Part shown: one piece after another, positions 205 through 33,580 of the stretch | How positions within the stretch are numbered: the stretch's first letter is position 1 | How the letters are laid out: every line of letters starts with the position of its first letter | Source: a bacterium | GTDB lineage: Bacteria > UBA8248 | Reading direction: 5' to 3' | Length of the DNA stretch: 64,000 nt | Assembly (NCBI GenBank): GCA_965221165.1 | Contig: CBDCRP010000003.1 | Location: 2,081,924 to 2,145,923, forward strand | Translations under genes and position numbers: made by a program | The notes under the pieces: generated by a model | What the model saw: the letters and a program-made list of their open reading frames with translations, nothing else | What the model was told of the DNA's origin: nothing | Database searches by the model: none

Positions 205-630
205 ATGTTCACGATTGCCAAGCGCACGGATTACGGCTTGATGGCGCTCTCCTACCTTGCGGAGCAGGAAGAGGACGAGGCCATTACCTCGCGGGCCATC
301 GCGTGCAGGTTCCACATTCCCGCCGAACTGCTTGCGAAGACGATGCAGCTACTGGCCAAAAACGGACTCGTGGAGTCGCGAAACGGGCCCAAGGGCGGCT
401 ATGTTCTCTCTCGCCGGCCGGAGACGATTTCTGTGGCGGAGGTCATTCGGGCCATCGAGGGGCCCATCGCCATGGCGACGTGCCAGGCAGACGGCGTCTC
501 GGGGTGTGAACAATACGAGAAATGTACGATTTTTTATCCCATGGAAAGGATCCAGAAAAAGGTGACCGACGTGCTTGAGGGAATGACCCTTCAGGACATG
601 GTGGGTACGCCTGCAGGAGAGATCAGATGA
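205..630 (+). CDS. iscR: Rrf2-family Fe-S cluster regulator IscR
   Basis: Rrf2 motif [11 protein letters not shown], three Cys (C-x6-C-x5-C), first gene of the isc operon. Confidence 0.88.
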
Positions 631-1847
631 GCTTGAAGTTCCCCATTTACATGGATTACCAGGCGACGACGCCCATGGACCCCCGGGTCCTCGATGCGAT
701 GAATCCCTACTTCGGCGATAAGTTCGGCAACGCCGCGAGCCGCAACCACAGCTTCGGCTGGGAGGCGGAGAAGGCCGTGGACGACGCGCGGGAGCAACTC
801 GCCGCCGTCATCGGCGCGGACCCGCGCGAGATCATCTTCACGAGCGGCGCCACGGAGTCGGACAACATGGCGCTCAAGGGCGTCGCCGAGATGTACAAGA
901 AAAAAGGCAACCACGTCATCACCTCGGCGATCGAGCACAAGGCCATCATCGATTCCGCCAAGCGGCTCGAGACGTGGGGCTTCGACGTCACCTACATCGA
1001 GCCTCCCGAGAACGGCATCACGACGACGGAGATGGTCGAGAACGCCATGCGCGAGGACACCATTCTGGTCTCCATCATGGCGGCGAACAACGAGGTCGGC
1101 GTGCTGAACCCCATCGCCGAGATCGGGGCGCTGTGCCGCGGGCGGGGCGTTCTTTTCCACACGGACGCCACGCAGGGCTACGGCAAGATTCCCATCGACG
1201 TGGACGAGATGAACATCGACCTGCTCTCGGCCACGGCCCACAAAATCTACGGGCCCAAGGGCGTGGGAATGATTTACGTGCGCAGGCGCAGGCCGCGCGT
1301 TCGCCTTTCGGCCATCATCGACGGCGGCGGCCATGAGCGGGGAATGCGCTCGGGCACGCTGAACGTCTCGGGCATCGTCGGTTTCGGCAAGGCGGCCGAG
1401 TTGTGCATGGAGGAGATGGAAGAAGAGAACATCCGCTTGACGAACCTGCGGGACAAGTTCAAGTCCATCATGTTCGAGAGCCTGGAGGAGGTGTACGTGA
1501 ACGGCCATGAAACAGAGCGCCTCTCGGGCAACCTCAACCTGAGCTTCCCCTACGTGGAGGGAGAATCGCTCATCATGGGGCTGAGCGACGTGGCCGTATC
1601 CTCCGGCTCCGCCTGCACTTCGGCAAGCCTGGAGCCGAGCTACGTGCTCAAGGCCATGGGCCGGGGCGATGAGTTGGCGCATTCGTCGATTCGCTTCGGG
1701 TTCGGGCGTTTTTCCACCGAAGAGGAGATGGAATACGTGGCCGAGAAGACGACGGACATCGTGATCCGGCTTCGCGAGATGAGCCCGCTCTATGAGATGG
1801 TGAAAGAGGGCGTCGATCTCTCCAAGGTGGAATGGCAGTCGCATTAA
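627..1847 (+). CDS. iscS: Cysteine desulfurase IscS
   Basis: [12 protein letters not shown] lysine in [17 protein letters not shown] catalytic loop. Confidence 0.97.
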
Positions 1848-1931
1848 ATGAGTGCTTTGAGCATATTATGATATAGGGGCTGCGGCTCACGGAAACCTGG
1901 AATCGCAGCGACCGGGAAAAGGAGAACAAAA

Positions 1932-2342
1932 ATGGCTTACAGCGAAAAGGTGGTCGATCACTACAACAACCCCCGCAACGTCGGCTCGCTCGACAAGAGC
2001 GATCAGACGGTGGGCACGGGCATCGTCGGCGCGCCCGAGTGCGGCGACGTGATGAAGCTGCAGATCAAGGTGGACGAAGGAGGCCTCATCGAGGACGCGA
2101 AGTTCAAGACGTTCGGCTGCGGAAGCGCCATCGCCTCGAGTTCTCTGGCCACCGAGTGGCTCAAGGGCAAGACGGTGGACGAGGCCGAGGAAATCAAGAA
2201 CACGCAGATCGTCGAGGAGCTCAACCTCCCGCCCGTGAAGATTCACTGTTCCGTGCTGGCGGAAGACGCCATCAAAACCGCGCTGAACGATTTTCGCGAG
2301 AAGAACGGGGTGCCGGTCGTCGAGCGCAAGGGCCACCACTAG
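1932..2342 (+). CDS. iscU: Fe-S scaffold IscU
   Basis: GAPECGDVM, TFGCGSAIASSS, LPPVKIHC motifs. Confidence 0.97.
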   Translation: MAYSEKVVDHYNNPRNVGSLDKSDQTVGTGIVGAPECGDVMKLQIKVDEGGLIEDAKFKTFGCGSAIASSSLATEWLKGKTVDEAEEIKNTQIVEELNLPPVKIHCSVLAEDAIKTALNDFREKNGVPVVERKGHH

Positions 2343-2373
2343 GAGCGGGCGACTCGCCGGCAGGGAGTAGGAA

Positions 2374-2730
2374 ATGGAAACCGCTGCGAAAAAACTGAGC
2401 CTCGAAGTGACCGACAAGGCGGTGGACAACATGCGCCGCTTCATGGAGAAAGAGGGCAAGCAAGGCCATGTCCTCCGCGTCGGCGTGAAGGGCGGGGGCT
2501 GCTCCGGTCTTTCTTACGTCCTTCAGTTCGAGGGCGAGGAGCGCATCAACCCGCTGATGGACGAGGTGTTCGAAAAAAACGGCATCCGGGTGGTCGTGGA
2601 CAAGAAAAGCCTTTTTTTCCTGGCAGGCACCACGCTGGAGTATGAAGACGGGCTGACGGGCAAGGGTTTTACGTTCAAAAACCCCAACGCACGTCAGTCC
2701 TGTGGTTGCGGGGAAAGCTTTTCCGCGTAA
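2374..2730 (+). CDS. iscA: A-type Fe-S carrier IscA/HesB
   Basis: GGGCSG and NPNA..SCGCGESF motifs. Confidence 0.95.
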   Translation: METAAKKLSLEVTDKAVDNMRRFMEKEGKQGHVLRVGVKGGGCSGLSYVLQFEGEERINPLMDEVFEKNGIRVVVDKKSLFFLAGTTLEYEDGLTGKGFTFKNPNARQSCGCGESFSA

Positions 2731-2835
2731 CGCAACCGGGATGAAACGCGCCGCGCCCATGCACCGTGGGATAGCGACGCGTTTTTCTTTTGAGTTCATG
2801 GCGCCCGGCGGTTCATGCGGGCCTGGAATCGCGCG

Positions 2836-3477
2836 ATGAGCGAAGCGACGAAAGAAGAAGTCTTTTCCATTTTCGATGAAGAGGGCGGAATAGCGCCCAT
2901 CCCCGCCCAGGTCGATCATTTCGCCTTGTTGGGGTTTCAGCGGAAATTCAGGGTCGACGCCGAAGCGCTGGAAGCCAGGTTCTACGAACTGAACCGGAAA
3001 CTCCACCCCGATTTTTTCATGGATGCGCCCGTCGCGGTCCGAATCCGGAGCCTGGATGCGACCGCCCGCATCAACGAGGCCTATCAGACGCTCAAGGATC
3101 CGATAGCGCGCGTGGTGTATCTGGTGGAACTCGAAACCGGAAAGCTCGAGGAGAACGAGAGGACGCCCCCGCCCGAGTTGTTCGAGGAGATATTCGAAGC
3201 CCAGGAGGCGGCGGCGGAGTTTCAGTGCTGTGCGGACCAGGAGGAAGCCGAGAGTTTGCGGGAGCGTCTCCATGCGGCCATGGGGTGTTTTTCGGTGCTT
3301 CGCCACGGCCAGCGCACGGCGCTCGACAGGCTGGGCGCCGCCTGGGACGGAGCGATGGACAAAAACGAACCCGCCCCGCCCGAGGTCGTGAAGAAGATGC
3401 GCTCCATTCTCGGGCAGAGAAACTACATCGAGAACACCCTCACGAGCCTCAAGCGCGCCTTGGAGGAGAGTGAATGA
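2836..3477 (+). CDS. hscB: Co-chaperone HscB
   Basis: J-domain HPD, INEAYQTLKDP; position between iscA and hscA; start uncertain (2815 or 2836). Confidence 0.9.
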   Translation: MSEATKEEVFSIFDEEGGIAPIPAQVDHFALLGFQRKFRVDAEALEARFYELNRKLHPDFFMDAPVAVRIRSLDATARINEAYQTLKDPIARVVYLVELETGKLEENERTPPPELFEEIFEAQEAAAEFQCCADQEEAESLRERLHAAMGCFSVLRHGQRTALDRLGAAWDGAMDKNEPAPPEVVKKMRSILGQRNYIENTLTSLKRALEESE

Positions 3478-5309
3478 GCCAAATCGTCGGGATCGACCTG
3501 GGCACCACGAACAGCCTGGTCGCCTCCGTTTCGGAAGGTGAGCCGACGATCCTCGCGCCCGAGGACGAGCGTGGCATCGTGCCCTCCGTGGTGAGCTTTC
3601 GCGCCGATCGTGTTCTCGTTGGCGAGGAGGCGCAGGATGAGCGCGTCTCCAACAGCCGAAACACCATCTTTTCCATCAAGCGATTCATGGGCAGAGGCTA
3701 TGAGGACGTGAAAGACGAGATGCGCCGCCTGCCCTTCGATGCGGACCCCGGGGAGAAGGAAGTCGTTCACGTGCTGGCCCGGGGGCGATCCTACAGCGCA
3801 CCCGAAGTAAGCGCCCTGGTGCTCAGGCGCCTGAAGGCGAGGGCCGAGAAGGCGCTGGGGCGGCCCGTGCTCAGGGCGGTGGTCACGGTTCCTGCGTATT
3901 TCAACGACGCGCAGCGCCAGGCCACGAAAGACGCGGGCAAGCTCGCGGGCCTGGAAGTGCTCCGCATCATCAACGAACCCACGGCGGCTTCCCTGGCCTA
4001 TGGCCTTCATGAGCGAAACCGAGGCGTCATCGCGGTGTACGACTTGGGGGGAGGCACGTTCGACATCTCGCTCCTTAGAATCAAGGACGGCGTGTTCGAG
4101 GTGCTCTCCACCGGGGGGGACACCCATCTGGGCGGAGATGATTTCGATCAGGCGATTTCCCTCAACATACAGCAGGAAATCCTTGGGGCGCATGGCGTTG
4201 ATTTGGGCGAAACGCCCGAGGCTCTGGCCGAACTCACGGTTTTGGCCGAACGGGTCAAGAAAACGCTGTCAGAGCGCGATTCGGCGGAATATGGGCTGGA
4301 AAATCCGGGCGGCATCCCGCTCGCCCACAAGAGCAGCCTCACGCGTGAGGAGATGGAGGCGCTTCTCGCGCCGATCGCCGAGCGGACGCTGGCGCCTTGT
4401 AGGCGCGCGCTCGCAGACGCGGGCCTCACGCCCGATGAGGTGCATGAGATCGTTCTGGTGGGCGGGTCCACCCGCATGCCCCTCATCCGCCGCATGGTGG
4501 AGGATTTGTTCCAAAAACGCCCGCATGTGGACCTGGACCCCGACGAGGTGGTGGCCCTGGGCGCCGCGGTGCAGGCGGACATCCTCGCGGGCGGCAGAAA
4601 GGACATGCTGCTCCTGGACGTGACGCCGCTTTCTCTGGGCATCGAGACCATGGGCGGCGTCATGGGCTGGATAATTCCCCGCAACACCACCATCCCCACG
4701 AGCGCCAAGGAAACGTACACCACCTTCAAGGACAACCAGACGGGGGTGGACGTTCACGTGCTCCAGGGAGAGCGCGAACTGGTGAAGGACAACCGCTCGC
4801 TCGCGCGTTTTCGCCTGGCGGTCGACCCCGCGCCGGCCGGTCTCGCCCGTGTGGAGGTGACGTTTCTGCTCGACGCCAACGGCATTCTAAACGTGACGGC
4901 CCGGGATCTCAGGAGCGGCAAGGCGTCCTCGGTGGAAGTCCAGCCCTCCTACGGGCTGACGGACGAGCAGGTCGAGCGCATGCTGATCGAATCTTTCGAA
5001 CACGCGGAACAGGATATCCGCTCCCGCCAGGTTCTGGACGCGAGAACCGAGGCGGAAACCATTCTCATGGCGACGGCCCGCGCGATGAACGACTACGCGG
5101 AGGATGCGGTCTCTCCCTCGGAGCGCGCCAAGATTCATGAAGCGGTGAGCGCACTCGAGGAGTCCTGCCGGGGGGAAGACCCGGGACGGATTCGGGATAT
5201 GGTCGACGCGCTGAATGAAGTCACGATGCCGCTCGCGGAGCGGATGATGGATAACGTTTTGAAATCGGCCTTGGAAAACAAGAGGGTGAGCGAAGCCCTC
5301 AAAGACTAA
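3474..5309 (+). CDS. hscA: Fe-S chaperone HscA (Hsp70 family)
   Basis: [24 protein letters not shown] motif typical of HscA; isc context. Confidence 0.93.
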
Positions 5310-5348
5310 AAGCCGCAAGCAGTTTGCGCGGGGCGCAGGGGAAGAAAA

Positions 5349-5705
5349 ATGGCGAAACTTTATTTTACGGAAGAGAAGCAGACGATTGACATTCATGTGG
5401 GCGAGAACATTCTCGAAACGGCCCTCGAAAACGGCGTCGACCTGGATCATGCCTGCGGCGGCGTGTGCGCTTGCTCGACGTGTCACGTGAAAATCAGGAA
5501 CGGCGCGGATCTCTTCAACGAATCCACCGAAGATGAGGAAGATCAGCTCGACGACGCGCGCGACGTGAACCTCGACAGCCGGCTGGCCTGCCAGGCGACG
5601 CTGGAGAGAGAAACCGACGAGGTCATCGAAGTGGAGGTGCCGTTCTGGAACGTGAACCTGGTGCAGGAGGGTCCGGATGCCGCCAGGGAGCAAAGCGCTC
5701 ATTAG
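5349..5705 (+). CDS. fdx: ISC 2Fe-2S ferredoxin
   Basis: HACGGVCACSTCH and SRLACQ motifs. Confidence 0.93.
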   Translation: MAKLYFTEEKQTIDIHVGENILETALENGVDLDHACGGVCACSTCHVKIRNGADLFNESTEDEEDQLDDARDVNLDSRLACQATLERETDEVIEVEVPFWNVNLVQEGPDAAREQSAH

Positions 5706-6137: not shown

Positions 6138-6947
6138 GTGAGCGAACAAAGGCGAGCGGACGGAAAAATACGGCTCTCCCGAAAGGGCGCGGTGGCGACG
6201 ATTACGTTTCACGCGCCCGAGAGGTTGAACGCCATCGAATACGAGATGTGGGTGGAAATCGGAAGCCTCATGCCCGAACTCGACGCGGATGATTCTGTGC
6301 GCGTCGTCGTTTTCAGGGGCGCGGGCGAGCGCGCTTTTTCGGCCGGGGCGGACATCTCGCGCTTCAAGGAGGAGCGCTACAGCTCGGAGCAGGCGAAGCA
6401 TTTCTCGGAAACCGGGTTCTTGCGCGGCCTCGATGCGGTGGATGCGTTCTCAAAGCCCGTCTTGTGCCTCATCCGGGGCGCTTGTGTGGGAGGGGGCGTG
6501 GAACTCGCCGCCGCCACGGATTTGCGTGTCGCGGGCGAGAGCTCGCGCTTCGGGGTGCCGGTGGCCAAGCTCGGCCTGGTGGCGGGCTATTCCGAACTCA
6601 GGCGGTTCGTGCAGTCCATCGGCCCTGCGCGCACGCTGGACATGCTGCTCACGGCCAAACTCTTCACGGCGCAGGAAATGCTGGACGCGGGCTTTTTGGC
6701 GCGCGTCGTGCCGGATGAGGAAGTGGAGAAGACAACCTATGAGATGGCGGAGCGCATCGTCTCCCTGGCGCCCCTCGTTCACAAGTGGCACAAGGGCTTC
6801 GTGAAGAAGGTATTACTGGACCCGGGCCTTTCTTCTCTTACGGAGGAGGAGAAAATGCGCGAGGTCGCCTGTTTCGACACCGAAGATTTCAGAGAGGGCG
6901 TGGAGGCATTTCTGAACAAGCGCAACCCTGAGTTTCGAGGGAAATAA
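6138..6947 (+). CDS. Enoyl-CoA hydratase/crotonase family protein
   Basis: AFSAGADI, GACVGGG, EDFREGVEAF.KR.P motifs; start uncertain. Confidence 0.9.
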   Translation: MSEQRRADGKIRLSRKGAVATITFHAPERLNAIEYEMWVEIGSLMPELDADDSVRVVVFRGAGERAFSAGADISRFKEERYSSEQAKHFSETGFLRGLDAVDAFSKPVLCLIRGACVGGGVELAAATDLRVAGESSRFGVPVAKLGLVAGYSELRRFVQSIGPARTLDMLLTAKLFTAQEMLDAGFLARVVPDEEVEKTTYEMAERIVSLAPLVHKWHKGFVKKVLLDPGLSSLTEEEKMREVACFDTEDFREGVEAFLNKRNPEFRGK

Positions 6948-6952
6948 AACCG

Positions 6953-8155
6953 ATGAACCGAAAAACAGGCGGCCCCCTCGAGGGCGTCCGGGTGCTGGAG
7001 GTCTGCCAGGTCATGGCCGGGCCGTTCTGCGGAAGCCTGCTGGCGGATATGGGCGCGGACGTCATCAAGGTGGAAAACCCCGACGGCGGCGACAGCGCGC
7101 GCCATCTGGGGCGGTACTTCGACGGCGGCGAGGCGCACGGCTTCATGAACCTGAATCGCAACAAGCGCAGCGTGGTGGTGAACATAAAGGCGCCAGAAGG
7201 CGTCGCGCTCATGAAGGAGTTCGCGAAACAAGTCGACGTTTTCGTGGAGAACATACGGCCCGGAATCATGGCCAGGCTGGGTCTGGGATATGAGGATCTG
7301 AAAAAGATAAACCCAGGCCTCGTCTACGCCTCCATTTCCGGCTATGGCGACTCAGGCCCTTTCGCCGGCAAGGGCGGCTTCGATTTGGTCTCACAGGGCC
7401 TCTCCAGCCTCATGAGTTTCACGGGCGAACCCGGCGGCGCGCCCGCGAAGATACCCGTGCCGATATGCGATTTGAATGCGGGGATGTATACGGCGTTATC
7501 GATTCTCTCCGCCTATATCCACAAGCAGCGCACAGGCGAAGGCCAGCGCATCGACGTGGCGCTGACGGACTCCGGCCTCGGCTACACCTTCTGGCAGGCG
7601 TCGCAGTTTTTCCCCTCCGGCGAACCGCCCGAACCCTTAGGCTCAGCTCACGAGATGACGGCTCCCTACCAGGCCTTTCAGTGCAAGGACGGCTATCTGG
7701 CATTGGGAGCCGCCAACCAGAGGAACTGGGAGTTGTTCTGCGGTGCGATCGAGCGAGGAGACCTCTTAAGCCGTGAGGAATACGCCACCGACGGCCTAAG
7801 GCGCGAGAACTATCTGAAGCTTGCGGGTGAGCTGGAAGAAGTATTCGCCCAGAAAACGCGAGACGAATGGGTGGCGCTTTTGGATTCGGGCGGAATCCCC
7901 TGCGGGCCCATTCTGAACATGGCGGAAACTTTCGCGCATCCCCAAATCCAGGCGCGGGAGATGAGCGTGGAGATTGAGCATCCCGCAGCGGGCCGGATGC
8001 GGGTTCTGGGCTTCCCGCCCAAGTTGTCTGCGACGCCGGCCGGCGTGCGGTCGCCTGCGCCCTTGCTCGGGCAGCACACCGACGAGGTGCTCCGTGAGTT
8101 CGGAACGAGTGAGGATGAAATAAAAAGCCTGCGGGACTCTGGAGCCGTGGCCTGA
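6953..8155 (+). CDS. CaiB/BaiF family CoA-transferase (family III)
   Basis: LADMGADVIKVE, NRNKRS, GFDLVSQG, APLLGQHT motifs. Confidence 0.92.
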   Translation: MNRKTGGPLEGVRVLEVCQVMAGPFCGSLLADMGADVIKVENPDGGDSARHLGRYFDGGEAHGFMNLNRNKRSVVVNIKAPEGVALMKEFAKQVDVFVENIRPGIMARLGLGYEDLKKINPGLVYASISGYGDSGPFAGKGGFDLVSQGLSSLMSFTGEPGGAPAKIPVPICDLNAGMYTALSILSAYIHKQRTGEGQRIDVALTDSGLGYTFWQASQFFPSGEPPEPLGSAHEMTAPYQAFQCKDGYLALGAANQRNWELFCGAIERGDLLSREEYATDGLRRENYLKLAGELEEVFAQKTRDEWVALLDSGGIPCGPILNMAETFAHPQIQAREMSVEIEHPAAGRMRVLGFPPKLSATPAGVRSPAPLLGQHTDEVLREFGTSEDEIKSLRDSGAVA

Positions 8156-20911: not shown

Positions 20912-21157
20912 ATGTCGGACTTGGAAGTGACGGTGTATTCATCATCCACGTGAGCGCCCTGTAAGGCGGTGAGAGAGTTTCTCTCCCATCATGGCGTGGC
21001 GTATACGGAAAAACTCGTCGATCAGGATGAACAGGCCCTGGAGGAATTATTCCAGAGGGCGGACATGCGGGCCACGCCCGTGATTTTCGTGGACGATGAG
21101 AAGGTGGTCGGCTTCGATCGGGCGAAGCTCGAAAAGCTGCTGGGGCTCGCCGCATGA
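20912..21157 (+). CDS. Putative selenoprotein: glutaredoxin/NrdH-like redoxin with UxxC (U-A-P-C), 81 aa
   Basis: AAGGGAG RBS, ATG 20912, MSDLEVTVYSSST-[TGA 20951-53]-APCKAVREFL...ATPVIFVDDEKVVGFD; the ORF track calls only the post-TGA part, which lacks strand beta1 and the active site. Confidence 0.88.
20968..20988 (+). promoter_or_regulatory. Putative bacterial SECIS hairpin for TGA 20951
   Basis: GAGAGA-GTT-TCTCTC stem-loop (20971-20985); loop starts with G, 23 nt after the UGA. Confidence 0.55.
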
Positions 21158-21453
21158 GCGAAAACCGCAGGACCCTCGCCTGTCCCGGCTGAGGGCAACG
21201 CATACCCGTCCCGTGGGATGCGAAAACGCGCGATCTGGTCGATTGCGAGAATTGTGCGGGGGTGAGATTCCGCTTGGGCCGAGCGGAGGGGGCGGAGGTT
21301 CTCACTATCGTGCAGATGGTTTCATGCCCCCTTTGTGGTGAATACATACCGGTGGATGAGGACACCCCCGCAGGTTCCGTTTTCGAGCACGACGGAAAAA
21401 AACTGCGCCTCGATAAGGAATTCGGCGCATTCGTCCTGGCGCCCGAGGAGTAG
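21154..21453 (+). CDS. Putative selenoprotein: tandem LysW-like zinc-ribbon protein with CxxU, 99 aa
   Basis: ATG overlaps the upstream stop (ATGA); MSENRRTLACPG-[TGA 21190-92]-GQRIPVP..DLVDCENC...VSCPLCGEYIPV...LAPEE, in frame with the tracked ORF 21262-21453. Confidence 0.8.
21199..21222 (+). promoter_or_regulatory. Putative bacterial SECIS hairpin for TGA 21190
   Basis: CGCAT-a-CCC-[GTCCCGT]-GGG-ATGCG; G-led loop 15 nt after the UGA. Confidence 0.5.
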
Positions 21454-21575
21454 GGGCGCGATTGGATTCAGGGAAGAAATTCCGAGGTCTGTTTCCTTCG
21501 CGGTGAGTTGTTGATAGAGTATCGGTGCGTTCAGCGAGAGCGCATCTGCAAGAAAGGATTGCACGGGAGCATGTG

Positions 21576-21968
21576 ATGGCTTCTCGACCACAGGCCACTA
21601 TACCGCTGGATCACGCCGACAAATTGAATCGGGACTTGCTCGCGCAATTGGAGGAGCTTGAAAAAACTCCCGAGGAGGATCGTTGGCCCGAAGCGGTGTG
21701 GCCTACCGCTCAAGCGTTTAAGGATGCGGAAATTTTCGTTCGGAAGCTGCCGCTGGGCTCGATTCCCATGCCCTATATAGGGCTGGCCGATGACGGGGAA
21801 GTCAATTTTCTATGGAAAAAAGATGGTGTTCATGTTGATCTTGGGTTCTATGGAACGCGTACTTATACTTACTTTGCGCACGGTAAAGATGGACACCCAA
21901 TCGACGGCGAAGATATTCCGGCATCCGAAGGATTGCCTTCCGAAATCGTAGAACTGTTCACGGTCTGA
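21576..21968 (+). CDS. Hypothetical acidic protein, possible antitoxin/immunity partner
   Basis: GGGAG RBS before ATG 21576; P.I...DGEV.F.W motif; AT-richer composition. Confidence 0.6.
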   Translation: MASRPQATIPLDHADKLNRDLLAQLEELEKTPEEDRWPEAVWPTAQAFKDAEIFVRKLPLGSIPMPYIGLADDGEVNFLWKKDGVHVDLGFYGTRTYTYFAHGKDGHPIDGEDIPASEGLPSEIVELFTV

Positions 21969-21975
21969 TACAACC

Positions 21976-22494
21976 TTGCAAGCTCCTTCTCCACATCTTG
22001 ACGAGGAAAAATGCGCCGCGCCGGGAATCTCTCCCGGGGTTGTCGAGGACGAGGAGTTTCTTCTTCGAGAGATGTTCAACCCACAGCATGTCCAGGATGG
22101 GGAAGTGCTTGAGACTGCGATACCAGCAAAGGACCTTTGGAAGAAAGGATTTTCTGTTCATCGGATGAAGTACGTTTCAGTTGAGTTCATAAAAAATGCG
22201 GTCGAAGTACGCCTGTCTCGTCCCAGAAAAGGCGAACCCTGGAAAGACGAGGGTGTGGCGAAGCTACAAACGCTATCTGTACGACAGCTTCTTACAGATG
22301 ACGACAAAAAGGCGTTTGTTGTTATTGATACGGCCACGGAAGACAACCCCGGACATGCCAGCATATATATGGCCGAGTATATTGCAGAGCCTAAAAAAGG
22401 CGAAAGACATGCAAGGAGATTCAGGCATTTGCTTCTGGATATTCTTCAAAACAGAATGACCATAGATGAGGCGTATGCCGGTGCGATCGGTTAG
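21976..22494 (+). CDS. Hypothetical protein with possible ADP-ribosyltransferase-like (Tse2/RES-like) fold
   Basis: LLR...P, GFSVHR and D....NPGHASI motifs (R-S-H arrangement); AT-richer composition. Confidence 0.5.
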   Translation: MQAPSPHLDEEKCAAPGISPGVVEDEEFLLREMFNPQHVQDGEVLETAIPAKDLWKKGFSVHRMKYVSVEFIKNAVEVRLSRPRKGEPWKDEGVAKLQTLSVRQLLTDDDKKAFVVIDTATEDNPGHASIYMAEYIAEPKKGERHARRFRHLLLDILQNRMTIDEAYAGAIG

Positions 22495-22548
22495 TCATTT
22501 GGAGCAACATTGTATATAATCCCTTTTCCTTAGTTCTGGAGATTCGTT

Positions 22549-23505
22549 TTGGCAGAACGTGATTTCGAAATCATCATCATCGGGGCCGGGCCTGCGGGGC
22601 TGACGGCGGGGCTTTATACGGCGCGTTCCAAGCTGAACGTGGTCTGCTATGAAAAACTCGCGCCCGGCGGCGAGATTCTCAACACCGAGCACGTGGAAGA
22701 CTACCCGGGCTTCGAACTGGTCGGCGGGCAGGAACTGGCGGCCAAGTTCACCGATCACGCCATGAAGTTCGGCTTGCGGATCGAGATGGAAGAAGTCTCC
22801 GAAGTGAGAAAGGACGGGGATGATTTCCTCGTCGTCACCGACATGGGCGAGCGCCGCTGCGGGGCGGTGATTTATACGCCCGGCGGCTATCCGAGAAAGC
22901 TCGCGATTCCGGGCGAGGAGAAATACGCGGGCAAGGGCGTCAGCTACTGCGCGCTTTGCGACGGCGCGTTTTTTCAGGATGAGGTGATCACCGTCGTGGG
23001 CGGCGGGAACAGCGCCGTGGAAGAGGGGCAGTTCCTCACGAAATACGGCACGAAGGTCTACCTCATTCACCGCCGCGATCAGTTCCGCGCCCATGCGGTC
23101 TTGATGGACAGGATTCGCGAGAATCCCAAGATGGAGATCATCACCGACCACGTGGCGGAAGAGGTGGTGGGCGATGACAGGGAGATGAAGAAGCTGCGCA
23201 TCAAGAATGTGAAGACAGGTGAGACGCAGGAACTCGACGCCACGGGCCTGTTCGTTTTCATCGGTTTTATTCCGAACACGGATTTGATAAAAGATCACGT
23301 AGAAAAGGACGATGCCGGCTTTATCCTCACGGATCAGAACATGGAGACGAATGTTCCGGGCCTGTTCGTGGCCGGTGATTGCAGAAGCCAGTTGATTCGC
23401 CAGATCACCAACGCATCGGGCGATGCGACGACGGCGGCGGTGGCGGCCGAGAAATATCTCGAAGCCCAGGTGGAGGCCAGGAAACAGGCCGCGGCGGCTT
23501 CCTAG
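22549..23505 (+). CDS. trxB: Thioredoxin-disulfide reductase
   Basis: GAGPAG, GVSYCALCDG, GGGNSA, HRRD, GLFVAGD motifs. Confidence 0.95.
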   Translation: MAERDFEIIIIGAGPAGLTAGLYTARSKLNVVCYEKLAPGGEILNTEHVEDYPGFELVGGQELAAKFTDHAMKFGLRIEMEEVSEVRKDGDDFLVVTDMGERRCGAVIYTPGGYPRKLAIPGEEKYAGKGVSYCALCDGAFFQDEVITVVGGGNSAVEEGQFLTKYGTKVYLIHRRDQFRAHAVLMDRIRENPKMEIITDHVAEEVVGDDREMKKLRIKNVKTGETQELDATGLFVFIGFIPNTDLIKDHVEKDDAGFILTDQNMETNVPGLFVAGDCRSQLIRQITNASGDATTAAVAAEKYLEAQVEARKQAAAAS

Positions 23506-26308: not shown

Positions 26309-26686
26309 CTAGATTCCCAGTTCGTTGAACACGCGCAGCGACTCATCCGTCGCGCCCACGGCGTTGGGAGCGCCCGCGTAGATCGCGCACACCATGATGA
26401 TCTCCTGAATATCCTCTTTCGTCATGCCGATGCGAAGCGCCGCCTTGGCGTGGTACCCGAACTCCCTGTCCCGGCCCATGGCGCACAGGACGGAGAGGAT
26501 CACCGTCTCGCGGGTCTTGTCGTCGATGCCGTCTCGCGCGTAGAGATCGCCGTACACGGCTTCGGTGACGAACTGCGCGAACGCGGGACTCGCCTTCGCG
26601 AAAGCCTGGCGCCTCTCCTCTCCTTCCTCGCCGAAGATCCTCGCGCGGGTTCTCAGTCCTCTCTCGAGACGTGTTTCTTCGCTCAT
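26309..26686 (-). CDS. Carboxymuconolactone decarboxylase family protein
   Basis: YGDLYAR.GID.KTRE, H...ALR.G, YAG.P motifs. Confidence 0.88.
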   Translation of the reverse strand: MSEETRLERGLRTRARIFGEEGEERRQAFAKASPAFAQFVTEAVYGDLYARDGIDDKTRETVILSVLCAMGRDREFGYHAKAALRIGMTKEDIQEIIMVCAIYAGAPNAVGATDESLRVFNELGI

Positions 26687-31667: not shown

Positions 31668-32150
31668 TCAAGGCAATGAAAGATGCTTCCGCACCCTTTT
31701 AATACCGCTTTGGCCGAGTCGCCGGAATTGAGGAGAATTCTTGGGAATATTGACACGAGAACTGGCAATCCACACAAAACGAATGTCGTCTTTGGCGAAA
31801 AATGTCATCTTCTTGAGTTGCTTGGCTTCGCTATTCAACCAGTCCCGCAACCACTGCAGTTTGTTGAGAACCGCAGAAACTTCCCTTGTCGTGGCCGAGT
31901 GCACTTCTACCCATACCGCGTGTTCCCGTCCGTTCTCTGGCTTGTAGCCGAGACCGTAATCCCAACGCGGTTTATCGGCATATCCCGGCTCTTGCGCCAA
32001 AGCCGAGTCCAGATAGATGCTCCCTGTCAGCCGTAGTGAATCTGTGCATGTTACTAGTCTGCGATGCCTATTCTCCAAAGCCTGTTTTCCGGGACAATAC
32101 GCGAGATTCACCGGGGGCGTCGCGGCCACGACCGCCTTCTTGAAGGTCAT
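31668..32150 (-). CDS. Hypothetical basic protein, possible PD-(D/E)xK-like nuclease
   Basis: RWDY...WVEVH.A....V..K motif; ATGA-coupled to the upstream ATPase; AT-richer composition. Confidence 0.55.
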   Translation of the reverse strand: MTFKKAVVAATPPVNLAYCPGKQALENRHRRLVTCTDSLRLTGSIYLDSALAQEPGYADKPRWDYGLGYKPENGREHAVWVEVHSATTREVSAVLNKLQWLRDWLNSEAKQLKKMTFFAKDDIRFVWIASSRVNIPKNSPQFRRLGQSGIKRVRKHLSLP

Positions 32151-33322
32151 GACGCATCGGTCGGCAGGCGGTTAGCGACTTCAGCGACAATGTCCCCTAT
32201 ATTGCCGGAGAATTCGGTAAGACCACCCCAGCCTCCTTCAGCGATATCATCCGATCCGGGATCGAGGTCGGATATGTCATGAACAAAGCCGTCCCGTTTG
32301 AAATAATATGTTCTGAACTCGCTCTTGAGAGCAGTACCTGCTAAATCCCGTGTTTTGTTAGTGCGAGGAAGGCCGAGAAGCTTCAGTACATCTCTGATTT
32401 CTCCGCCGTTCTCCTGAAAGAAGCGCAGCGCCCATACGACATCGAGGACATGGGGCGAATGAGTGGAGATGCAAACGCGGTATCCGCGTAACCGCAATTC
32501 CATGACAAGGTTGAGTACCGCGCCGATTCCGTTCGGATGCAGCCCCATTTCCGGTTCTTCGATCACAACCCATTCAATATCGTCACGGATCGGTACTCTG
32601 GATGGCGGTAGAAGCCAATACAGCCCAAGCAACAGCGGCACAAATTCACGCTGCCCGGCCGACCATACGAGGTAAGGTAGAACGCGATCGTGACCTGTAC
32701 TCGGATTCAGAACCAGACGCCCCTGGTGCCCAGAAGTATCCGTGCGCAGCCCGAAACCTCCAAAAATATGTCTTTCCAAAGGCTTTCGCAGGGTCGCCGC
32801 CAAGCGTTGTCGGCGCGGGAAGACATCTTCATCGAGACCGATTTCGTTTTGCACGATGCCGTGGAGCTTTTCACTGAAATCCCGCAGAACGAAGGGGTCA
32901 CCTGCCCGGTAATCCGTAAACGGACGGGTCATGCCGTCGCGCAGGCTCATGACCCGTTGAGCGGGAATATAAAACAGTTTTTCCGAAACATCGGACCGGC
33001 CTGGGCGTGTATAGTCCGTCAGGTCGGTAGGCTTACCCGACTGCCCCAGGATCAGGCTGCTGTTCTCCTCCGACCAGATCGATGCCATGCCTTCGCCGAA
33101 ATACAGATCGAAAAAGGTACTCGCATTGCCGCGGCCGCGCTGCGCCAAGCCGAAGTGCTTCATGGTCTTGTGTATTGCAATTTTGTCTACAAGTAGTTTC
33201 AGGAGTTGCAAGAAGATACTTTTTCCGGTCGCCTGGGGCCCAACGAATATTGTAACGTCGCCGAAGCGGATGTCCGCTTCATTGACTGGCCCGATTTTCT
33301 TTGCTCTTATTCGCTCGACCAT
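32147..33322 (-). CDS. AAA_21/AbiEii-like ABC-type ATPase
   Basis: Walker A GPQATGKS, YIPAQR, signature SAGQ, Walker B IEEPE..LHP, H-loop STHS; no TM segments. Confidence 0.85.
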   Translation of the reverse strand: MVERIRAKKIGPVNEADIRFGDVTIFVGPQATGKSIFLQLLKLLVDKIAIHKTMKHFGLAQRGRGNASTFFDLYFGEGMASIWSEENSSLILGQSGKPTDLTDYTRPGRSDVSEKLFYIPAQRVMSLRDGMTRPFTDYRAGDPFVLRDFSEKLHGIVQNEIGLDEDVFPRRQRLAATLRKPLERHIFGGFGLRTDTSGHQGRLVLNPSTGHDRVLPYLVWSAGQREFVPLLLGLYWLLPPSRVPIRDDIEWVVIEEPEMGLHPNGIGAVLNLVMELRLRGYRVCISTHSPHVLDVVWALRFFQENGGEIRDVLKLLGLPRTNKTRDLAGTALKSEFRTYYFKRDGFVHDISDLDPGSDDIAEGGWGGLTEFSGNIGDIVAEVANRLPTDAS

Positions 33323-33580
33323 GCCCAAGCTGCCTTCGAGTTAACCGTTTCTACTCATCATGAGCACCACTATTATTATGCTATTGTGTCAAAAAACCTG
33401 GCGTTCTACCAACCTTGCTCAACTTTGAAATCGATTTCCCAGTTCAAGGTTGGAATCCAGAACCGATGCGTTTCTCGTCCGCCTAGTCAACCTTGCGGTT
33501 GCCACCAGCGTGCGCCGGAATGACGGTTTCTTCGTTCGTCTTTTGGTTCGGTGATAAGAAGTTCGATCCTTGCCGCTCCT

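Follow-up and report, generated by a model that had tools for sequence, protein, structure and literature searches.

The stretch of DNA analysed here (the window) comprises 64,000 nucleotides (nt) of contig CBDCRP010000003.1 from a bacterium of the GTDB lineage UBA8248. Within it two short genes follow each other on the forward strand, the first for a glutaredoxin-fold redoxin and the second for a small zinc-ribbon protein (the ribbon). Their reading frames share a 4-nt ATGA start/stop overlap (21154-21157), and the pair is translationally coupled. Each gene contains a single in-frame TGA codon at a cysteine (Cys) motif, as had been noticed in an earlier inspection of the sequence (the original prediction), in which both codons were taken for selenocysteine (Sec) and the pair was joined with a thioredoxin reductase gene, trxB, into an undescribed selenium redox module. 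The place of trxB had also been given correctly: it begins 1095 nt after the ribbon stop on the same strand, about 1.1 kb downstream, and two open reading frames (ORFs) of lower GC content, insA and insB, lie in between. The features are listed in Table 1.

Table 1. Features of the gene pair and its surroundings in the window, and of the mer-like cluster in the related locus L013.
Feature	Position	Strand	Remarks
Gene 1, redoxin	20912..21157	+	ATG at 20912, TGA stop at 21155-21157; 81 sense codons
In-frame TGA of gene 1, probable Sec, codon 14	20951..20953	+	motif S-S-T-U-A-P-C; first Cys position of CxxC
SECIS-like hairpin after the redoxin TGA	20968..20987	+	RNAalifold consensus; 8 pairs, bulged U, GUU loop
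Gene 2, ribbon	21154..21453	+	ATG at 21154, TAG at 21451-21453; 99 sense codons
In-frame TGA of gene 2, probable Sec, codon 13 (ligand site 1)	21190..21192	+	C-P-G-U
Candidate SECIS region, ribbon site 1	21202..21237	+	two alternative weak hairpins
Ribbon ligand site 2, Cys34 codon TGT	21253..21255	+	TGA (probable Sec) in 9 of 13 relatives
Hairpin after ribbon site 2	21269..21287	+	8 pairs (8-9), GGC loop
insA, 130 amino acids	21576..21968	+	no family; in 7 of 13 loci at 66-81 % identity
insB, 172 amino acids	21976..22494	+	no family
Promoter-like site before trxB	22492..22520	+	TAGTCA-17 nt-TATAAT, 10 of 12 consensus matches; consensus match only
trxB, thioredoxin-disulfide reductase of low relative molecular mass (Mr)	22549..23505	+	TIGR01292, 361.5 bits (cut-off 343.45)
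L013 merE	6355-6573		PF05052, 41.7 bits (cut-off 22.8); NF010310, 2.3e-12
L013 merT-like gene	6593-6943	+	two consecutive TGAs at Cys-Cys; read through, PF02411 at 42.9 bits (cut-off 32.9)
L013 MerR	7369-7773		TIGR02051 (mercury regulator), 138 bits, under the cut-off of 150.85; ahead of ZntR, CueR and CadR

Related loci were collected by scanning one genome per species. Out of 77 pattern matches 13 loci were confirmed (L001 to L013), all of them from metagenome-assembled genomes (MAGs) labelled Nitrospinota, Nitrospinaceae or 'bacterium'; the sets of 14 sequences used below consist of the window and these 13 loci. The redoxin gene was found directly 5' of the ribbon gene in every related locus, each time with the same 4-nt overlap, and its product was 70-88 % identical across the 13 loci. 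Conservation of the pair in relatives, which the original prediction had proposed as a check, was thus observed throughout. Standard gene calling misses the pair, as had also been claimed: all 12 database relatives of the ribbon begin after its first knuckle.

The redoxin TGA was present in the window and in 13/13 loci, and it aligns with the first Cys of the glutaredoxin CxxC motif (Pfam match, residues 6-63). In the ribbon two positions are concerned. At codon 13 (site 1) the window and 11 of the 13 loci have TGA, and L001 and L013 have TGT. At codon 34 (site 2) nine loci have TGA; the window, L003, L011, L012 and L013 have a Cys codon, TGT or TGC. With U for Sec and C for Cys, the combinations of site 1 and site 2 among the 14 sequences are CC (one), UC (four), CU (one) and UU (eight). 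Both positions are invariant Cys in an alignment of the full-length all-Cys members of the wider ribbon family (22/22). The codons just 5' of the TGAs vary synonymously among the genomes (TCC/TCT, ACG/ACT, TGT/TGC, GGC/GGG), which argues that the N-terminal pieces are under selection at the protein level. L013 has two TGAs in yet another gene, where they fall on a Cys-Cys motif. As TGA terminates 24 of the 59 picked genes in the window, the standard code applies, and a global reassignment of TGA was rejected. Judged from these comparisons, both TGAs in the pair are almost certainly read as Sec. Recoding had originally been preferred to two independent nonsense mutations, and this preference is borne out by TGAs that are kept across 13 genomes and by Cys codons that replace them at the same positions.

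The opposite view, that neither gene encodes a selenoprotein and that these are two nonsense-mutated pseudogenes or short separate ORFs, could appeal to the 64-kb window itself, in which neither a tRNA-Sec nor selA, selB or selD was detected (55 proteins were scanned, and the tRNA scan found no tRNA) and in which an Rfam scan gave no match. It would have to explain why the TGAs are conserved across the 13 genomes while their flanking codons change synonymously, why Cys codons substitute for them at exactly these positions in relatives, and why hairpins lie 3' of two of the three Sec sites. These observations bring it close to refutation and we regard it as hardly credible. According to part of the paper describing BSepDB (PMC13326102), three MAGs labelled Nitrospinota, Nitrospinaceae or Nitrospinae (GTDB UBA8248) have 48-54 selenoprotein genes. 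In the window, the CMD-family gene at 26309-26686 was inspected for a hidden Sec and none was seen.

In a midpoint-rooted tree of the pair, of which two of the 11 inner branches were well supported, L013 (CC) takes the place of outgroup. A well-supported clade of five unites the four UC sequences (the window, L003, L011 and L012) with L001 (CU), and the eight UU rows make up the rest. Several switches between Sec and Cys are needed to account for this spread of CC, UC, CU and UU.

Candidates for a Sec insertion sequence (SECIS) were sought downstream of each site. The loop of the redoxin hairpin begins 23 nt after the UGA, 97.2 % of its cells are paired, and in two of nine distinct rows, those of the window and L012, both partners of one A-U pair are replaced to give G-C. 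The hairpin after ribbon site 2 is like it in having a loop that starts with G, 22-23 nt after the UGA position; over the 14 sequences 94.6 % of its cells are paired, and its sole double change (C-G to U-A, both synonymous) occurs in the window. At ribbon site 1 the RNAalifold consensus amounted to only -9.5 kcal/mol without a compensatory pair, and folding of the single sequence gave a hairpin at 21199-21222. The window keeps the site 2 hairpin though the codon is now TGT for Cys (codon and hairpin together at 21253-21287), as would be expected if the switch from Sec to Cys were recent or if the hairpin had another role. Both the redoxin hairpin and the site 2 hairpin would be consistent with SECIS elements. 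As the sequences differ too little for a proof by covariation, it is chiefly the comparison of Cys with Sec codons that supports recoding.

The redoxin matched the Pfam family Glutaredoxin (PF00462) with 58.1 bits against a cut-off of 22.9. Its best NCBIfam match was the YruB family (TIGR02196; 78.4 bits, 4.4e-22, cut-off 88.55), and the NrdH model (TIGR02194) gave 50.7 bits (1.5e-13, cut-off 85.75). Membership of the NrdH and Cp9 groups was judged by the features set out in the relevant part of PMC3720550. For Cp9/YruB an N-terminal [IV]-x-[ILV]-[YF]-[ST] and a conserved Pro and Gly-Phe are given. The redoxin carries the V-T-V-Y-S, T-P and G-F features that are named there for the NrdH/Cp9(YruB) group, and its U-A-P-C active site falls outside the pattern C-[PGI]-[PYWQ]-C given there for Cp9/YruB. 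Family scans of the window proteins revealed a thioredoxin reductase (TrxR) near the redoxin, no peroxiredoxin and no ribonucleotide reductase genes. The original prediction of an NrdH-type redoxin therefore stands as far as the NrdH/Cp9(YruB)-like group is concerned, by scores and features, and fails for NrdH itself. That identity was rejected for want of the C-[VMI]-Q-C motif, of an nrd operon around the gene and of a score reaching the TIGR02194 cut-off. A glutaredoxin selenoprotein with UxxC (PF00462) is entered as experimentally verified in the table of a recent review (PMC13188914). By its sequence, then, the redoxin is classed as a glutaredoxin-fold, NrdH/Cp9(YruB)-like member of a known selenoprotein family.

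In the ribbon two ligand sites are predicted. The N-terminal site consists of C10, U13, C31 and C34 (C-P-G-U, and C-E-N-C at 31-34) and the C-terminal site of C58, C61 and H79 (C-P-L-C at 58-61); at the latter an Asp is present in this lineage where members of the wider family have a further Cys. The LysW domain (PF21344) was recognized with 28.8 bits against a cut-off of 27. An AlphaFold model based on the 14-sequence alignment, with a predicted local distance difference test (pLDDT) score of 82.5, is all-beta and shows two successive ribbon units. When this model was compared with the PDB by Foldseek, nothing was found at E <= 0.001. The top match was LysW of Sulfolobus tokodaii (3vpb_E; E 0.041, probability 1.00) with a target-normalised template modelling (TM) score of 0.80 and a root-mean-square deviation of 1.6 over 54 columns, and Thermus LysW appeared at rank 28. 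A PDB profile search aligned ribbon residues 55-96 with 3vpb_E at E 0.0046. No NCBIfam cut-off is reached by the ribbon: the FmdB-family model TIGR02605 gave 14.4 bits (cut-off 31.3), and the dual-CXXC model NF041197 was not among its NCBIfam matches at E up to 0.1.

The likeness to LysW raises the alternative that the ribbon is a LysW/ArgW-type amino-group carrier acting through a C-terminal glutamate. It shares with these carriers the zinc-ribbon globular domain, as judged from PF21344, the 3vpb_E profile and the fold, and it ends in Glu in the window and in 11 of the 13 loci. The carrier model NF041070, however, gave 41.1 bits (1.3e-10, in two stretches), below its cut-off of 75. The ribbon's tail is short, differs among the loci (PEE, PVE, TAE, RTL; extended in L013) and lacks the acidic carrier end, which in LysW-type proteins is an EDWGE-type motif. 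No ATP-grasp LysX/ArgX-like gene was present among the 55 window proteins scanned, and both the two tandem domains and the Sec at ligand positions are unlike LysW. A LysW carrier function was rejected on the score, the variable tail and the want of a LysX-type neighbour, and we consider it very improbable. A sub-lineage of the ribbon (L013:6286-6351; database relatives P0013 and P0022) has a longer C-terminal tail with an extra Cys (P-G-C or P-V-C) in place of the short P-x-E.

When 1.84 billion representative proteins were searched with a profile, 48 relatives of the ribbon were obtained at E <= 0.001, and the wider family amounts to 643 clusters at E <= 1e-5 among 3475 candidates. The names that come with their sources are generic or hypothetical; the few specific ones include Rokuibacteriota and Vicinamibacterales. 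Look-alike clusters in the ESM Atlas (54-167 members; an all-Cys relative served as query) have the PF21344 domain, and their most frequent sources are Rokuibacteriota and Methylomirabilota. Three database ORFs (P0054, P0059 and P0048) join distant ribbon relatives to siroheme-synthase-like, aminotransferase and insertion sequence (IS) integrase pieces; in all likelihood the gene calls ran on into neighbouring genes, of which these ORFs offer a sample. In another distant relative, P0049, an N-terminal piece aligns to redoxin residues 31-60, a weak match (hhalign probability 36 %, E 3.9e-4; Pfam E 5e-4, below the cut-off) that was non-significant in BLASTP of P0049 against the redoxin (E 25). 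Weak as it is, this match counts in favour of the pairing of redoxin and ribbon.

A 2026 review of prokaryotic selenoproteins tabulates 119 families, among them a Sec-containing MerT, an FmdB-family zinc ribbon (UxxU) and metal-binding proteins (PMC13188914). The LysW-like ribbon is absent from this table, and the redoxin-ribbon pair is not named in the section of the review on selenoprotein operons (PMC13188914). The ribbon resembles FmdB (TIGR02605, UxxU), NF041197, MbdU and Sec-MerT (PF02411) in having Sec at Cys positions of small Cys-rich motifs (PMC13188914). It differs from FmdB and the dual-CXXC selenoproteins in that it fails their models and has a CxxU motif in each knuckle instead of UxxU. 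A literature search gave no earlier description of a zinc-ribbon or LysW selenoprotein or of a link between LysW and mercury; the comparison covered the review and this literature. As far as the consulted portion of its description states, BSepDB searches previously reported families only (PMC13326102). The designation 'undescribed' in the original prediction can thus be kept for the ribbon, and has to be dropped for the other components, since both Sec-glutaredoxin and TrxR-fed redoxins of the Cp9/NrdH type were already known. Provisionally the ribbon is regarded as a new selenoprotein family with Sec at predicted metal-ligand positions.

The third gene considered, trxB, encodes an enzyme that presumably uses NADPH, as read from its HRRD motif. 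In the four loci without an insert (L002, L005, L006 and L010) it follows the ribbon gene after about 120-130 nt, so that the earlier suggestion that trxB adjoins the pair in insert-free relatives proved right for these 4 of 13. Within 2.1 kb downstream of the ribbon it was found in 12 of the 13 loci. Before trxB in the insert-free loci a TGTTAGAAT-like stretch was recognized by eye. Together with the promoter-like site in the window this makes it probable that trxB has its own promoter.

From these data we infer that the locus encodes two selenoproteins working as a pair. The ribbon would hold a metal ion in a Cys/Sec centre. In the window one knuckle of this centre has Sec as its second residue, and in most relatives both do. 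The selenols of the centre would be easily oxidised to a selenenylsulfide or diselenide, and the Sec-redoxin would be the dedicated reductant of the ribbon, its selenol attacking the selenium. The redoxin in turn would be recharged by a low-Mr NADPH thioredoxin reductase, for which the neighbouring trxB is the obvious candidate. A chain from NADPH through TrxB and the redoxin to the ribbon is put forward tentatively, as a possible and by no means assured variant of the known systems of TrxR, redoxin and target.

Two such systems can be compared with it. In Clostridium pasteurianum Cp34 is a thioredoxin-reductase-like flavoprotein, Cp9 a YruB-type redoxin and Cp20 a peroxiredoxin; Cp9 stands between the reductase and the peroxiredoxin and passes electrons on, according to the section of PMC3720550 on this system. 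The window is like it in that a YruB-type redoxin lies near a low-Mr TrxR and would deliver electrons to a neighbouring target. In contrast to Cp34-Cp9-Cp20, the attacking residue in the window is the probable Sec, the active site is U-A-P-C and not C-P-[YW]-C, the YruB score is below the cut-off and the neighbour is a zinc ribbon and not a peroxiredoxin, its role as target being a putative one. The second is the Sec-glutaredoxin and Sec-methionine sulfoxide reductase A of Clostridium sp. OhILAs, where, in the part of the review that treats this pair, the Sec-glutaredoxin is proposed to have become adapted to reduce another selenoprotein (PMC13188914). Unlike that system, which has an enzyme as target, the genes in the window are translationally coupled and the putative target is a metal-site protein. 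The OhILAs pair is the subject of a paper by Kim and colleagues of 2011 on the 'tandem use of selenocysteine'. Its Sec-glutaredoxin is reportedly glutathione-linked.

A number of observations weigh against this reading of the locus. Besides the absence of Sec machinery from the window these concern the hairpins: the covariation in the redoxin hairpin was reached by 19 of 500 shuffles, which is modest support, and that in the site 2 hairpin by 77 of 500, which is non-significant; the 60-nt fold after the redoxin TGA had a z-score of only -1.68; and at ribbon site 1 RNAalifold found no clear common SECIS hairpin in the aligned loci. The redoxin, as noted, misses the curated cut-offs of both YruB and NrdH. 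As to trxB, three unrelated inserts occupy the gap between it and the ribbon. The window and seven loci have insA/insB there, L013 has a mer-like cluster, and L012 has a restriction/PIN/ImmA island with no trxB seen within 6 kb of the ribbon. Moreover, trxB looks like a housekeeping enzyme. All loci share the wider gene order, with PrpD 86-96 % and TrxB 82-98 % identical, and because they come from one narrow lineage with shared synteny, the adjacency could be inherited order and not function. The linkage claimed originally therefore stands in so far as trxB is close by in most loci, and is weakened by the narrow lineage, the three inserts, the promoter-like site and the situation in L012; the link of trxB to the pair is circumstantial.

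These points leave room for the explanation that the pair is real and trxB a mere housekeeping neighbour, the redoxin being recharged by glutathione or by another reductase. The Pfam family of the redoxin, Glutaredoxin, agrees with this, as do the promoter-like site of trxB's own, the variable inserts that part trxB from the pair and the lack of a trxB within 6 kb in L012. The best NCBIfam types of the redoxin, however, are YruB and NrdH, whose studied members use thioredoxin reductases, as stated in the pertinent part of PMC3720550, and trxB does lie within 2.1 kb in all loci except L012. We therefore think this explanation rather unlikely. Since characterised redoxins of the NrdH/Cp9(YruB) group receive their electrons from thioredoxin reductases (PMC3720550, in its account of this group), TrxB is a plausible donor whatever the adjacency means.

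A different function for the same components would be the handling of selenium itself. The four-ligand ribbon would then bind selenium, for example as a selenotrisulfide after reduction of selenite by the redoxin and TrxB, and pass it to Sec synthesis; the stoichiometry is one that we infer. Such a function would suit Nitrospinota-labelled MAGs that are very rich in selenoproteins, as given in part of PMC13326102, and reduction of selenite by the thioredoxin system is reported in the portion of PMC8538045 on which we draw. Against it, no selD, selA or selB was found nearby among the window proteins scanned, nothing in the sequence is specific to a selenium cargo, and all-Cys members occur in the soil phyla Rokubacteria and Methylomirabilota. 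Neither phylum is known to us as Sec-rich. A role in selenium handling is accordingly improbable.

The 3' flank of the ribbon gene is a recurrent insertion site. The insA/insB cassette occupies the same spot in the window and in L001, L003, L004, L007, L008, L009 and L011, with identities of 60-88 %, more diverged than the flanking genes. Its GC content in the window (0.51 for insA, 0.49 for insB) compares with 0.57-0.60 in the flanking genes and 0.61 for the window, and its GC at third codon positions (GC3; 0.50 and 0.47) with 0.77-0.85 for the neighbours. Neither protein had a match in Pfam, NCBIfam or PHROGs; PADLOC gave one weak match for insA (E 0.014) and none for insB. The nearest ESM Atlas clusters of insB are unnamed hypotheticals, commonest in Pseudomonadota, and its AlphaFold model (pLDDT 36) was unusable. 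In L012 the minus strand directly after the ribbon (L012:6426-12041) carries a 1047-amino-acid type I restriction R-like protein, a PIN-like protein, an ImmA/IrrE-like protein with a helix-turn-helix and others, names which we take from the translations. Upstream of the pair the window has a PrpD-family gene. In L004 (L004:3646-5758) some 2.1 kb separate it from the redoxin gene that follows, instead of about 90 nt, which points to an insertion on the 5' side too. Downstream of trxB the window continues with a nuoI-like gene and with genes that, judging from their translations, are presumably nicotinate phosphoribosyltransferase-like and NrnA-like. Two ORFs on the minus strand at 31668-33328, with a GC3 of 0.58-0.59 and in one of them a match to AAA_21 (AbiEii-like ATPase), are probably another acquired island. 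On the plus strand at 205-5705 an iron-sulfur assembly row is found, with an Rrf2-family regulator, a class V aminotransferase (IscS-like), NifU_N (IscU-like), an Hsp70 (HscA-like) and a 2Fe-2S ferredoxin.

One of the inserts bears on the function of the ribbon. In L013, which has an all-Cys ribbon, the ribbon stop is at 6351 and a mer-like cluster of 2.1 kb starts 3 nt later, at 6355. In addition to the genes in Table 1 it contains a Cys-bearing membrane protein and a SHOCT-domain ORF, after which trxB follows; no merA was seen. A second indication comes from P0063 (230 amino acids), in which a ribbon continues, by fusion or by run-through, into a membrane domain that resembles MerT and bears a Cys-Cys motif. 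P0063 was the only longer relative at E <= 0.001 among 7999 scored candidates, and its MerT match was below the Pfam cut-off (20.6 bits against 32.9, E 4.7e-4). MerP, NmerA (the N-terminal domain of MerA) and archaeal MerH are mercury metallochaperone-type domains. The ribbon is like them in being a small Cys-rich protein beside MerT/MerE and MerR, in L013 only. It is unlike them in that it has no sequence relation to these domains and that the mer neighbourhood is restricted to one of 13 loci plus the one fusion.

It could be, then, that the primary role of the pair is the handling of soft metals of the mercury type. In the cytoplasm the ribbon would accept Hg(II)-like ions from importers of the MerT/MerE type or act as a sink for them, Sec would raise its affinity, and the Sec-redoxin would exchange or strip the metal rather than simply donate electrons. 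The ribbon of L013 that is directly followed by merE, a merT-like gene with two probable Sec codons and MerR speaks for this, together with the ribbon joined to a MerT-like domain in P0063 and the review's table entries for a MerT with Sec and for further selenoproteins that bind metals (PMC13188914). Set against these are the presence of mer genes in only 1 of 13 loci, with none among the 55 proteins scanned in the window, and the lack of a visible merA. The insertion hot-spot means that the mer adjacency may be accidental, the match in P0063 is below the cut-off and may be a gene-call run-through, and a plasmid search with a distant ribbon relative brought up no plasmid-borne relative. We consider a mercury-type primary role somewhat unlikely. 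In its most specific form, in which the ribbon would be a natural Cys2Sec2 or Cys3Sec tetrahedral centre serving as a sink of very high affinity for Hg(II)-type ions, fed by MerT/MerE-like importers and maintained by the Sec-redoxin, the proposal is speculative and distinctly doubtful.

To return to the pair as a Sec-redoxin and its ribbon, the ribbon would add to the known selenoproteins a family that homology-driven catalogues cannot see. Both genes of the pair, like the merT-like gene of L013 with its two TGAs, are mis-called or missed by standard annotation. In the ribbon Sec would be placed at the ligand positions of a zinc ribbon and not in the active site of a thioredoxin fold, and the CC, UC, CU and UU alleles among close relatives offer a natural experiment on the benefit of Sec over Cys. 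If the proposed electron chain is correct, a redoxin and its probable client would both use Sec, which would make this a second case of 'tandem' selenium use. If it is the mercury lead that proves true, selenium use would be tied to metal handling in bacteria with Nitrospinota-labelled relatives. The pair would then afford selenium-based metal protection in a symbiont whose presumed 50 or so selenoproteins would make it unusually vulnerable to mercury, and the allelic series would record the ongoing tuning of the metal site of the ribbon.

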